Assembly (NCBI GenBank): GCA_000165345.1
Contig: CM000435.1
Location: 672,001 to 736,000 of the forward strand
Length of the DNA: 64,000 bases
Reading direction: 5' to 3'
Part shown: in pieces, positions 878 through 9,593 of the stretch
Position numbering within the stretch: position 1 is the first letter of the stretch
Layout of the letters: every line of letters starts with the position of its first letter
The notes under the pieces: generated by a model
Database searches by the model: none
Told to the model about the DNA's origin: nothing
What the model saw: only the letters and a program-made list of their open reading frames with translations
Translations under genes and position numbers: made by a program

Positions 878-3271
878 TTATTCGAAATTAAACTTCTTGG
901 AGTGGTTAGTTGAACCGAATATACTACTTTCATCAATTTTCGATAGTGCTTTGTCAAAATAACTAATTCTAGCAGCATAATCATTGGATTTATCAAGCAG
1001 AAAAAAATTATCACTTTTAGAATTAGGAATTTTTAAGTGAATAGATGGCTCAAAATCTTTACCAGTGCTTATTATATAAAATATACGTTGGTGTTCTCTT
1101 GAAATAAATTTCATTGAATTTACAAGATAGTAAATTGAGAGCCAAAATAATTTTGGTACGCTTTGTCTTACAAATTCTCTTTCAGCAATAATCAAAGCAA
1201 TTGTTTCTGAGCTAATTCCCTTACAACTGAACAAACAGCCGTTCATTGGCAATTCTCCTAATAATAAAGACAAATATTTATCAAGTTTTGAAACTAATAC
1301 TTGCATGTCTTGGGCTTTACCCGTCTGACAATTGATTTTTGTTTTCAAAAAATTATTTAAAATAATTTTTCTCTCAATTCCATGAATAATTGGGAAAATA
1401 AGATCAATTAACTTGGTTTTTCTTATAAAAAATTTAGATTCGAAATATTCTTTCTCATCTTCAAAATTTGAAACAAAATCTTTTAAACTATAGATTTCTC
1501 CTTGACTCATTCTTTTTGTGATGAAATATTCAAACTCTGTGAGCAAAGAAGGCAGCCCGGCCATTGTAATTTTAATTAAATTGCAAATATCTTGACTAAA
1601 ATTTAATTTTTTGATTAGAATTAAATCCAAACATTTGTTTTTTTTTTCGAAGTTACAAAAATCAATCATACAATAAACATTCTTGTTAATAATAATATTA
1701 AGATCAACAGCTGTCTTAACCTTATGAAATAACTCTTGGAATTTACCTGAAGCAAAGAGAATATATTTATCATCTATTTGCGAAATATTGATATTAGTTG
1801 TCATATTTACTTTATTTTCGCATTGAAATTTCCTAGAAATGGGTAAAGGTATAATTGGATTACGATTAATTATCACTAGATTAAACAAATTTCTTTTCAG
1901 AGTTGTAGAAACGCAGCCACTTTCAGGCGATCGCTTGGTTTCATTTATTTGTTTAATAAAGTCATTTCTTGGAATACCTTTATTGCAATTTCTACTTTTC
2001 ATTTTGGATAAGTTTATGATAATAGCAGCTGAGGGTATATCATTGATTCCCAATAAAATACTACCAAAATTTAAAGAATGATATACTTCTTGTAATAGCT
2101 TAAAACTATTCCTTCCGACAGGAGATGTCAGAGGAAATAACTTAATAGCAGTTGGACTCCAGTGAGAAGGCACAAAACCTATAATTTTCATAGAAATGTT
2201 ATCAACTAACCTATCCCATCCTTTTTTTTGAAACTCATTTTCCATAATTGCGATAATATTCTCCTGTTCTACCACCTCTCCTTCCTCTGAGTCAGATAAA
2301 TCTGTCGGGTCAATCTTTCTATCGATATACTCGTTGTAAGCATTTTTGTCCACATATTTCAATAAATAATTGTTTTTTTCTGCAAATAGTGTTAATATAG
2401 TATTTCCACCGAAGAATAGGTTTGAAAAATCTAACCTTAAAGTTAATAAGTTCAGCGAATTTGCAATTATTACATCAGAATAGCTCAGTAAACATCTTGA
2501 ATCTACACAAGATATTTTAATTTGATGATTACTTTGATTCGTAATAATAGTTGGTCTTTTATCACTACTTATAGAAAGAAGTACTTTAGAATATTTAATT
2601 ATTAAAATCAAATTGATTTTTATATTTCTTAGGTTGAAAAATTCTCTCTGTAAGTCATTAAAGCAAATGCTCAGTAACCCTTCAATAATTTTAATTGGCA
2701 TTGCATCATCTTCAGTTGATTCAAAAGATGAGTTAAATTCCATATTATTTTCCGGAATTATACTCCAAATAGTAATATTTTTATTTTCGTCACCGCATTT
2801 CTTTATGATGTTTCGTAAAATACTTACAAAGTTGACATTCAGTTGGCTATTAAATATTTGTTCAGTGTTTTGATGGGATTTTTTTTTTATTTCATTTTTA
2901 GTCATATTGGAAGAAATTTTTTCGAATTCCTTATCCGACTTTAACCATATATCAATTATAGACTGGTAAATTTGTCTGGAACTTAAGCATTCATCAATTT
3001 TATACAATTTTTCGTTTAATCTACTGGAGACAAAAAAGCCAAGCTTTCGCAAAAAAGTGTTAATTTGAAATTCATTGGAAATTATTCGAGAGAATACTCT
3101 AGATAAACTATCAATTGTTCTGTCATTGCAAGAAACAAATGGATATATAAGGTTATGCGAGTATCTTTCGAGGGTTTGATTATTGATTCTTCCTGAGATT
3201 AAATCGCTTTTAAGAAGTACCCAGTTTATTGGGGGGTGGTATTGTACAATGTGGACTTCATTCCCTATCAT
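878..3271 (-). CDS. Large hypothetical protein (797 aa)
   Basis: Long ORF with an ATG start verified at 3269-3271. Composition is coding-like. I recognise no family. Confidence 0.6.
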   Translation of the reverse strand: MIGNEVHIVQYHPPINWVLLKSDLISGRINNQTLERYSHNLIYPFVSCNDRTIDSLSRVFSRIISNEFQINTFLRKLGFFVSSRLNEKLYKIDECLSSRQIYQSIIDIWLKSDKEFEKISSNMTKNEIKKKSHQNTEQIFNSQLNVNFVSILRNIIKKCGDENKNITIWSIIPENNMEFNSSFESTEDDAMPIKIIEGLLSICFNDLQREFFNLRNIKINLILIIKYSKVLLSISSDKRPTIITNQSNHQIKISCVDSRCLLSYSDVIIANSLNLLTLRLDFSNLFFGGNTILTLFAEKNNYLLKYVDKNAYNEYIDRKIDPTDLSDSEEGEVVEQENIIAIMENEFQKKGWDRLVDNISMKIIGFVPSHWSPTAIKLFPLTSPVGRNSFKLLQEVYHSLNFGSILLGINDIPSAAIIINLSKMKSRNCNKGIPRNDFIKQINETKRSPESGCVSTTLKRNLFNLVIINRNPIIPLPISRKFQCENKVNMTTNINISQIDDKYILFASGKFQELFHKVKTAVDLNIIINKNVYCMIDFCNFEKKNKCLDLILIKKLNFSQDICNLIKITMAGLPSLLTEFEYFITKRMSQGEIYSLKDFVSNFEDEKEYFESKFFIRKTKLIDLIFPIIHGIERKIILNNFLKTKINCQTGKAQDMQVLVSKLDKYLSLLLGELPMNGCLFSCKGISSETIALIIAEREFVRQSVPKLFWLSIYYLVNSMKFISREHQRIFYIISTGKDFEPSIHLKIPNSKSDNFFLLDKSNDYAARISYFDKALSKIDESSIFGSTNHSKKFNFE

Positions 3272-3390
3272 TATTTATCAATTATCCCATCATGAAAAAA
3301 AAATTAAAGATACAATTAGAAAAATCGATTTAACATTAGGACTAAAAAAATTTTAACCGGATTTTTTTTTCAAAAATAGCGGGTATACTA

Positions 3391-3921
3391 TTAATCAGAA
3401 GGCCTATTTTGCAAAGCTTGCTGTTTAATTCTTCTATTATATTCTGCTCTATTATTTGAGTAAAGCTGATACGACTCAGCTTGAGCTGGGGATTTAATAT
3501 TTGGGTTATCTAAAAGATCTTGGATACCTAGCAAAATCTGTTTCATGGTAATTGAGGGTTTCCAATCTTCATCTTCATTTAGAATAGAAAGGCAAACCGT
3601 ACCTGAAGGATATATGTTAGGGTGAAACAGTGGTGGTTGAAAAATACACTTAGGAGGTTTTGCAGGGTAATCTTCAGGGAATGTTACATTTAGCGTATAT
3701 TCACCATTTTCCCAGAGAGTCTAGCATTATAGAAGTAAGAATGATTTTAATTAACAAATTAATTAACTTACCCCACTTTTACCCGGAATCTTGCATATCC
3801 ATTTCATCATATCTTGGCCTTCTCCATCCTCAGATGGAGCATATTTTGCAGAGAATCCAACTGGATGGTCCTTTCGCCATTCTGCTCTTTCTTGAGCAAT
3901 TCTCTTCCTCGAAAAACTCAT
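3391..3921 (-). CDS. UBC9: SUMO-conjugating enzyme E2 (UBC9), two exons: join(3391..3720, 3772..3921), with a 51-nt intron at 3721..3771
   Basis: Exon 1 reads [50 protein letters not shown]. The intron is GTAAGTTAATT...ATGCTAG, phase 0. Exon 2 reads [124 protein letters not shown] carries the E2 active-site Cys. The 159-aa product is collinear with UBC9 (RLAQERKAWRKDHPFGF...[16 protein letters not shown]...LLGIQELLNEPN). The gene is not in the ORF track. Confidence 0.8.
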
Positions 3922-4087
3922 TCTAGTAATTATCTTCGAAATAAATACAATTCATTAATTTAATTCTTACATATGTTTGTTTTCCCGGAATTTATTGGGC
4001 GATACGTATAGTTATTTTTATATTGGACAAAAAAAAAAGAAAAATCGAACAGAAATTAATGATTCAAAAACTAGACTAATAATGCCG

Positions 4088-6109
4088 CTAATACACTAAT
4101 AATAAGATATTAATTATAAGGCATATTCCATAATATGTTTTTTTCAAAAAAATATTGTATTCAGTAGATTTTTTTTGCGGTTTATTTATTTCTCCTGGAC
4201 CAGTAAGTAACAATTTATTTCCTGTGCATTTATCAGGCAAAGATTCTGATGAAACTTGACGGATAATACCAGGGTACCAAAACATGTCACACGAATCTGC
4301 TGAAACATTCATAAAACCACCAATTCCCCATGACACTCCCCAACTATTTTGTATTACATAATATTTATCGCCATTGTCATTTATTCCATACCCGATCATA
4401 ATTACTGCATGGTTCAGTTCAGAGTGAGTTGTGCATTTTGGTGCCTTATAAATTCCATCTGAATAGCTGCTAAAACCGGGTAAATTAGAATTAATACTTA
4501 ATGAAATTGACCCAACTTTCGGAAGTATTGTTGTCACAAAATCCCAGCCATCATCACCATTTAATGCAAGGCCAGTAAAAACATTATATTTGCTAATAGT
4601 TAAACAACCATTGCAAGCACTCGCCTTGCAACTACTAATTGAGTCGATATAAGGGTATTCATTCCAAGAACAAATGTAATTTCTCGGGACGTTTTGTTCA
4701 AGCAAGTAACTCCAACCATTCGAATAAAATCCGCCATCGCATCCTAAATTCCCAAAACTCATGCTGCAATCAATTATTTGTTGAGGAGATAGCGGCGCAG
4801 GCAGTACCAACTTTTGTATACAATTTGAAATACTTATTGATGCACTAACAACAAATGCATAGCATCCACCGCATTTACCCTGATCAAAAGGTATATATAC
4901 ACAGGAACCTCCATTTACATCGCGCGAATCAAAATATATATTTTTATTTGTTATCTCGCCAGTTTCATTAACTCCGTTACCAGCGTTCGAATTTTCTGTA
5001 TTCAACTCCTTTAAGATTTCATTTCCACTGCTGTGCGTGGGCTCAAGCTTTTGTACAGATCTACCTAACAGATTTTCAGATTGTATCTCTTTTCCTTCCG
5101 CAATAGATTCTTTCCAGCTATATCCGGTTACTTTATCCCCTAAATTCTTTGGAATAATTAATTTGGAAGGGGGGCGATCAAGCGATAATTGAGTCAATTC
5201 AAATCTTGCTTCTGGATTTGACTTGATTGCTGAAATAATCTCCTGAATTTTTATATTACAAATTTCTAAGGAAGATCTGTTCAGTCCTAAATTTGATTGA
5301 ACTTCAGAAACAAATATGCAGATACAATCTATAATTGATTGACTATTATCTTGATTATTTGTCAAATTTAATAGATTCATGGGACTTGAATTAATATTTG
5401 GAGTATCCAACAATCTGTCCATCCACGTGGTATTTGTTCTATAAATAGAGTTAAAAAACACCTCAGGTTGAATAATTATATCAAGGTGATTGTCCATTTT
5501 TCCAGAATTAGTTGCAATATTGATTTTAATTGTAGTATTTACAACTCTCTCATTCTCAGCTTTCAAGATGCTAGTAGAATTGTTATTTAAACCCTCATTT
5601 TCAAGCTCACGAGTCTTATTAAATAAGTAAAAAATCAAAGAGATCTTTTGAAGATATTTGTTCAGCTTCTCGTATTTACTTATACATTGATGAACATCAA
5701 TGGAAAAATTGAATACAAATGGATCGAAAAACTTAGAAGTCAAATTATCTTCTTCAACTAAACTATTATTTTTCTGGAAATCTTTTTCTATGAAATTTTC
5801 AGTGCGATGATCTACTAGTTTAGTGGAGCTTTGACTAGAATAGTTATTTGGAGAAAATATTTCAGTATTTGTTTCGTTTTTTTTTCCAATTAGTATGGAG
5901 TGGTCATCTTTTTCTTGCTTCAACGTACGACTCACACCGGATTCATTACCGTTCATGGAGTGGTTTCCATTATGTAATAAGTTACCATTTATTTTTGTGA
6001 TAATTGAGAGAAAACTAATAAAATTGATAAATACAATGAACTTATTCCATTTTCTTCCACATGACTTATTTGGAATTTGCAGGTCTTTCTCTGTGAACCC
6101 AATTTGCAT
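4088..6109 (-). CDS. Papain-family (C1) cysteine protease with an N-terminal signal-anchor (type II membrane) and a long pro-region; cathepsin-like
   Basis: The C-terminal catalytic domain has QGKCGGCYAF (active Cys), HAVIMIGYG (His) and NSWGVSWG (Asn). The hydrophobic N-terminal stretch is FIVFINFISFLSIITKI. The track start at 6145 is TTG, so I take the first ATG at 6107-6109 (MQIGFTEKD). Confidence 0.75.
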   Translation of the reverse strand: MQIGFTEKDLQIPNKSCGRKWNKFIVFINFISFLSIITKINGNLLHNGNHSMNGNESGVSRTLKQEKDDHSILIGKKNETNTEIFSPNNYSSQSSTKLVDHRTENFIEKDFQKNNSLVEEDNLTSKFFDPFVFNFSIDVHQCISKYEKLNKYLQKISLIFYLFNKTRELENEGLNNNSTSILKAENERVVNTTIKINIATNSGKMDNHLDIIIQPEVFFNSIYRTNTTWMDRLLDTPNINSSPMNLLNLTNNQDNSQSIIDCICIFVSEVQSNLGLNRSSLEICNIKIQEIISAIKSNPEARFELTQLSLDRPPSKLIIPKNLGDKVTGYSWKESIAEGKEIQSENLLGRSVQKLEPTHSSGNEILKELNTENSNAGNGVNETGEITNKNIYFDSRDVNGGSCVYIPFDQGKCGGCYAFVVSASISISNCIQKLVLPAPLSPQQIIDCSMSFGNLGCDGGFYSNGWSYLLEQNVPRNYICSWNEYPYIDSISSCKASACNGCLTISKYNVFTGLALNGDDGWDFVTTILPKVGSISLSINSNLPGFSSYSDGIYKAPKCTTHSELNHAVIMIGYGINDNGDKYYVIQNSWGVSWGIGGFMNVSADSCDMFWYPGIIRQVSSESLPDKCTGNKLLLTGPGEINKPQKKSTEYNIFLKKTYYGICLIINILLLVY

Positions 6110-6302
6110 TCTAATAAATTTCTGTTCGGGAGGAGAGCAATACAAATTAAATATTTAAGTTATTTCGCCTTAATGGCAACTAAGAAACAATATTATTAAT
6201 TTCATGAAACATTTTAGCCCCACGCAATTAGCGTGTGCATAGATGATGCCGCCAGAAAAAAAATGGTTAGGTCTGCAGAAAAATTCAGGAAAAAAAAACT
6301 AT

Positions 6303-9096: not shown

Positions 9097-9130
<34 letters not shown>

Positions 9131-9593
9131 CAGTTTAATACATCCGAAGAGCATTTATAATATAAACATTTTTTATCTGCCCATTAATCTCACACTTAAG
9201 AAGACTAGACATAAATTTATTTCACCCTTTTTTTATTTATTAAACCCAAGTCATAATTGATTAAATTGTTTTGCTATGTATAAATCATTCTTTCTTTGAA
9301 CATAAGTTTTGTTTTTGATAAAGTACTTTATTTGTTTTCGATTTTTTCCATATTTTATTAAATTTAAATAATAATTTTCATAGTTGATTAATCTACTTTT
9401 TTTGTATTGAAATATACATAGCGTTCATTATTGTTCACACATCGATTCCTCGAGAGAAAAATATTATGTCATAAATGGATGCTTATATCTAGAGTAGTAT
9501 TCATACATTAAATTCACTTAAACGTATAAATGGATCAAATGACCCATATTAAAGACTTACGGATCTTGGTGTTTTTTTAATTTAGAACAAAAA

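Follow-up and report, generated by a model that had tools for sequence, protein, structure and literature searches.

A complete UBC9 gene of Cryptosporidium parvum assembled across one 51-nt intron and missing from the open reading frame track

Does the minus strand of this stretch of Cryptosporidium parvum DNA carry a complete gene for UBC9, the SUMO-conjugating E2 enzyme, although the accompanying open reading frame (ORF) track lists none? To our knowledge, UBC9 is to be expected in every eukaryote. A reading of the letters alone (the sequence-only reading) had proposed that the gene at positions 3391-3921 of the window, which is the whole stretch of 64,000 nt analyzed here, is found only by splicing. 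Two exons joined across a 51-nt intron of the form GTAAGT...CTAG were said to encode a 159-aa protein collinear with UBC9, neither exon was said to give an ATG-initiated ORF of the 60 aa needed for the track, and the 88-aa plus-strand ORF listed in its place was called spurious. Our follow-up analysis bears out this proposal. The region 3391-3921 (minus strand) is almost certainly the single-copy C. parvum UBC9 gene, with one phase-0 GT-AG intron of 51 nt and a 159-aa SUMO E2 of the UBC fold as its product.

Every element of the proposed two-exon splice was present where it had been placed (Table 1). Scripted assembly of exon 1 and exon 2 yielded an in-frame coding sequence (CDS) of 480 nt for 159 aa. 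When read unspliced, the intron introduces four in-frame stops; it has GT...AG ends, and its removal gives an uninterrupted UBC9 reading frame. The GC content is 0.43 and 0.36 in the two exons vs 0.20 in the intron. The ATG-initiated ORFs on the minus strand comprise 52 aa (3763..3921) and 51 aa (3391..3546), both below 60 aa, in line with the absence of the gene from the track. A neighbouring GT in AAAAGTGGGG was looked at as a possible alternative junction. We accepted the 3772^3720 join because the alignments with Plasmodium falciparum and human UBC9 cross the junction without a gap and the cDNA contig L008, described below, matches it exactly.

Table 1 Features of the UBC9 locus in window coordinates
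Feature	Position	Strand	Remarks
UBC9 exon 1	3921..3772	(-)	150 nt, from the ATG (3921..3919) to codon 50 (GGG); identical boundary in all orthologous loci
N-terminal helix and strands beta1-beta2 (product of exon 1)	3772..3921	(-)	
Canonical U2-type spliceosomal intron GTAAGTTAATTAATTTGTTAATTAAAATCATTCTTACTTCTATAATGCTAG	3771..3721	(-)	51 nt, phase 0, GTAAGT...TGCTAG, GC 0.20
UBC9 exon 2	3720..3391	(-)	330 nt, codons 51-159 and TAA stop (3393..3391)
HPN motif codons (His83-Pro84-Asn85)	3616..3624	(-)	Aligned with human UBC9 H83-P84-N85
Catalytic cysteine codon TGC (Cys93)	3592..3594	(-)	Aligned with human UBC9 Cys93
5' UTR	3922..3974	(-)	53 nt or more, deduced from nt 1-53 of cDNA contig L008 (sibling species)
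65-nt segment GTACGG...AAACAG	3602..3538	(-)	Second 'intron' in WRK33457.1 and QOY40602.1; judged coding, Gly90-Gln111 including Cys93
Spurious antisense ORF	3660..3926	(+)	88 aa, TTG start; from the ORF listing

The joined translation matched the Pfam family UQ_con (PF00179) with an E value of 3.1e-47 and a score of 160 bits (cut-off 27), residues 7-151 being aligned to positions 1-139 of the 140 profile positions. The UQ_con domain is common to all E2s, and the named top database relatives are called either UBC9 or, more generically, ubiquitin-conjugating E2 ('ubiquitin conjugating enzyme' in several sources), apart from a few 'hypothetical protein' entries. Such generic evidence would also suit a gene for a ubiquitin-conjugating rather than a SUMO-conjugating E2. 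Nevertheless, we consider a ubiquitin E2 extremely improbable. In a search against all PDB chains, the 28 best matches were without exception UBC9, Hus5 or SCE1 (190-271 bits), whereas the best non-UBC9 E2 reached 111.7 bits, and the UBC9 chains of the PDB are set apart from all its other E2s by roughly 80-160 bits. The best match was P. falciparum UBC9 (4jue/4m1n; E value 1.9e-80), which was aligned without gaps over residues 1-159, so that the joined peptide aligns over its full length with UBC9 orthologues, as proposed. The identity to human UBC9/UBE2I (PDB 1Z5S, 1A3S, 1KPS; the sequence used is identical to 1Z5S chain A) was 61% over 152 residues with a single one-residue gap, vs 35% to UBE2D2. 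In comparison with ubiquitin E2s, UBC9 carries one insertion in the beta1-beta2 loop and a second one, of two residues, after the active-site Cys at E98-E99-D100-K101 of the human protein. Both UBC9-type insertions are present here: in the alignment with UBE2D2, the six residues PSEDGE (29-34) face a gap, as do two residues within NEDEDW. The 8-residue length excess over other E2s was also visible in the PDB alignments.

The SUMO E2 assignment also agrees with existing records, and the 159-aa UBC9 product is already known and long deposited. Residue for residue, the same protein is found in EAZ51584.1 (C. parvum Iowa II) and in CUV07270.1 and PPS94743.1 (C. hominis), and the UniRef entry A0A0S4TIP2 of identical sequence carries the name SUMO-conjugating enzyme UBC9, which is a further argument against a ubiquitin E2. 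Near-identical orthologues of 159 aa occur in C. ubiquitum, C. canis, C. meleagridis, C. felis, C. muris, C. andersoni, C. serpentis and C. bovis.

In human UBC9, the residues N85, Y87 and D127 position and activate the substrate lysine, P128-A131 contact the psi-K-x-E motif, and the basic surface of the N-terminal helix (R13, K14, R17, K18 and H20) serves the binding of the E1 and the non-covalent binding of SUMO. In the Cryptosporidium protein, whose numbering coincides with that of human UBC9 from residue 36 onward, the HPN motif is followed by the catalytic Cys eight residues downstream, in a position-for-position match to human H83-P84-N85 and C93. N85, Y87 and P128-A129-Q130-A131 are likewise conserved, and R12, R16, K17 and H19 of the basic N-terminal helix are equivalent to human R13, R17, K18 and H20. 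The differences from the human enzyme comprise one extra residue in the beta1-beta2 loop, Ala in place of K14, and Ser in place of D127. P. falciparum UBC9 and Schizosaccharomyces pombe Hus5 have Ser at position 127 as well, which shows that D127 is not universal in the UBC9 family; judging from these sequences, Ser127 would be a lineage-common variant and not a defect.

The closest biochemically characterized counterpart is found in Plasmodium. P. falciparum UBC9 (PDB 4JUE, 4M1N) also has 159 aa, and its HPN/Cys93 active site is the same; it likewise carries Ser127, and Ala where human UBC9 has Lys14. The representative of the Plasmodium cluster shares 73% identity with Cryptosporidium UBC9. 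The structure 4M1N is that of PfUbc9, and the P. falciparum protein is a biochemically active SUMO E2 in vitro (PMC8224225), whereas the Cryptosporidium protein is known here from its sequence. Following the 73% identity with this active enzyme and the 61% identity with human UBC9, we infer the same enzymology. By homology, Cys93 would receive SUMO from the Aos1/Uba2 E1 in thioester linkage and would then pass it on to substrate lysines in psi-K-x-E motifs, an E3 being optional, while Asn85 and Tyr87 are predicted to organise the active site. UBC9 has been reported in all apicomplexans examined, C. parvum included (Ponts et al. 2008, PMC2408969), and the cognate SUMO and Aos1/Uba2 E1 were also reported for apicomplexans including C. 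parvum (PMC2408969).

The exon-intron structure recurs in the related genomes. In every orthologous locus the intron is located directly after codon 50 in phase 0, as determined from the deposited gene span minus 480 nt. It measures 51 nt in C. parvum, C. hominis and the genome L006 of a sibling species, 53 nt in L001 and C. bovis, 56 nt in C. ubiquitum, and 89 nt in C. muris, and all orthologous introns compared have GT...AG ends and a GC content of 0.20-0.25. Introns occur in 10.8% of the C. parvum genes and have a mean GC content of 22% (PMC4637869), a value that the GC content of 0.20 in the UBC9 intron fits. Relative to the window, identity in the four more distant species was 82-94% for the CDS and 49-79% for the intron; for C. 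hominis and L006, the respective values were 99% and 96-98%. The C. hominis gene has the same 531-nt span as that of C. parvum and differs by five synonymous substitutions in the CDS and two substitutions in the intron. Synonymous and non-synonymous codon changes against the four more distant species numbered 30/0, 47/1, 76/6 and 63/10, respectively, which points to strong purifying selection on both UBC9 exons.

These comparisons also bear on the question of whether the locus could be a decaying pseudogene, in which two short ORFs are the remains of a disrupted UBC9 and the 'intron' is an insertion with stops. Such a pseudogene would have the features noted above for the unspliced DNA, namely four stops in the frame and no piece that reaches 60 aa. 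However, all Cryptosporidium genomes examined have the interruption after the same codon, with canonical GT..AG ends, both exons are under strong purifying selection, and a spliced transcript was seen in a sibling species. Hence, a pseudogene is vanishingly improbable.

The transcript evidence stems from the Logan contig L008 (run SRR33220295), which contains an uninterrupted 480-nt UBC9 ORF and reads GGGTAAAAGTGGG directly followed by ACTCTCTGGG across the predicted junction. On both sides of the junction it is 100% identical to the genome L006, minus exactly the 51-nt intron, and it thus displays precisely the 3772^3720 join of the sequence-only reading. L006 represents a sibling species with 97.6% identity to the window, and its intron differs by one base from that of the window. 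Nucleotides 1-203 of L008 map to window positions 3974..3772. The last 22 nt, CCCCATGTACTCTGCGTTGATA, are non-genomic; reverse-complemented, they match the 3' part of the Smart-seq template-switch oligo (TSO) AAGCAGTGGTATCAACGCAGAGTACATGGG, and this tail identifies the library as cDNA. In the sibling species, the counterpart of the intron 3771..3721 is thus absent from the mature transcript. In C. parvum, the pre-mRNA would accordingly contain one 51-nt intron, located between codons 50 and 51, and splicing would leave a 480-nt CDS that is translated into the 159-aa protein.

Two further features of L008 were recorded. From nt 534 to 1117 (window 2828-3390) the contig runs from the UBC9 stop through a 119-nt spacer into the next gene, and the TSO sequence occupies the end opposite to the one expected of a sense mRNA. 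This orientation of the tail may stem from overlapping or read-through transcripts, the 5' end of an antisense RNA, or strand invasion by the TSO.

GenBank models from at least two recent C. parvum assemblies differ from the structure described here. WRK33457.1 (99 aa) is annotated on a C. parvum record that is identical to the window, and QOY40602.1 comprises 62 aa. Both share the locus and the first intron with the 159-aa model and remove another 65 coding nt, which leaves them with the same frameshifted tail and without the catalytic Cys. For WRK33457.1, the gene span of 416 nt (L012 1501-1916) equals 300 + 51 + 65, and deletion of window positions 3602..3538 gives its 99-aa protein exactly. 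The two-intron structure could be regarded as the true one, in which case the product would be a truncated protein that has lost Cys93: it was deposited for two assemblies, C. parvum possesses the GT and AG where they are needed, and the donor falls at a genuine intron position of the Plasmodium orthologue. Still, this second intron is poorly compatible with the comparative data. GA stands in place of its donor GT in five of the seven lineages compared, namely C. hominis, L006, L001, C. bovis and C. ubiquitum, and its acceptor AG reads AA in four species. With a GC content of 0.37 the segment is exon-like, and it lacks a pyrimidine tract. All differences within the segment (7-10 nt against the four more distant species, 2 each against C. 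hominis and L006) are synonymous and affect third codon positions, except for three synonymous first-position changes. Moreover, the cDNA contig L008 retains the 65 nt, and a truncated product would be left without Cys93 and half the UBC fold. A truncated protein as the true product is thus highly improbable, and the 65-nt second intron was rejected for the main product on the comparative and cDNA evidence.

Based on the GC content, the unconserved GT and AG, the exclusively synonymous substitutions and the retention in L008, we judge the 65-nt segment to be coding and the models WRK33457.1 and QOY40602.1 to be annotation errors. The one-intron splice of the sequence-only reading is exactly right and better than the truncated model of one recent C. 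parvum genome. WRK33457.1 and QOY40602.1 need correction, as they could mislead pathway inventories or drug-target lists built on them.

The numbers and positions of UBC9 introns vary among apicomplexans. Three introns interrupt the Plasmodium gene (L013 501-1346), two of them in phase 0 (after codons 49 and 117) and one in phase 1 (after CDS nt 268), compared to one in Cryptosporidium; two introns were found in Theileria (L015 501-1094) and none in Gregarina. In Cryptosporidium numbering, the first Plasmodium/Theileria intron separates K49 from G50 and precedes the Cryptosporidium intron (between G50 and T51) by one codon. This offset may reflect an ancestral intron that has slid or, equally compatible with the sequences, independent events. 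The second Plasmodium intron (after CDS nt 268) is located at exactly the AG/GT where the false C. parvum donor lies (window 3603/3602).

There is also a slim chance that the 65-nt segment is occasionally removed alongside the regular product. The synonymous change from GGA to GGT at Gly90, shared by C. parvum and C. muris, may have created a usable cryptic donor, so that a fraction of the UBC9 transcripts would lose the 65 nt and an unproductive, frameshifted isoform would tune the SUMO E2 levels. If true, such an isoform would explain why two evidence-based annotations chose the truncated model.

The antisense 88-aa ORF on the plus strand covers the intron and part of both UBC9 exons. A profile search of this ORF yielded no Pfam match, and the equivalent frame contains 5-6 stops in each of the four more distant species (L001, C. 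muris, C. bovis and C. ubiquitum). We rejected it as a gene for lack of a family match and because its frame is broken in these species; translation of the strand opposite a conserved gene produces this artefact, and calling it spurious was correct. More generally, a prokaryote-style ORF track misses about 10% of the Cryptosporidium genes, those with short introns, and reports antisense artefacts instead. The locus offers no new biology: C. parvum was already credited with UBC9 in 2008, and the 159-aa product is deposited in identical form. Its only value lies in the correction of annotations and in a reminder that bacterial-style ORF tracks fail on protist genes with short introns.

The window was 100% identical to the C. 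parvum record CP141124.1 over the 3416 nt compared, and by offset it should correspond to about CP141124.1:712880-776879, as extrapolated from these 3.4 kb. A second assembly was 99.9% identical to it, and the C. hominis loci about 97.2%. The gene order is kept in all loci: a Peptidase_C1 gene is followed by UBC9 and then by an unannotated protein of ~797 aa. The cathepsin-like Peptidase_C1 gene directly upstream of UBC9 (window 4088-6145, minus strand) is given in the ORF track with a TTG start and 685 aa, whereas the deposited models start at an ATG 12 codons downstream and comprise 673 aa. Directly downstream of UBC9 lies the 797-aa ORF (window 878-3271, minus strand), which occurs at the same place in all Cryptosporidium loci and for which no Pfam family is recorded. 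Neither tRNA genes (tRNA scan) nor Rfam families at the gathering threshold (Rfam scan) were detected in the 64-kb window. The C. parvum-like assembly L002 (GCA_048859185.1) is missing 290 bp at window positions 9104-9393 and is 99.93% identical elsewhere. The breakpoint adjoins an (AT)14 microsatellite (9100-9127), and this intergenic 290-bp difference reflects either a structural variant or a discrepancy between the assemblies.
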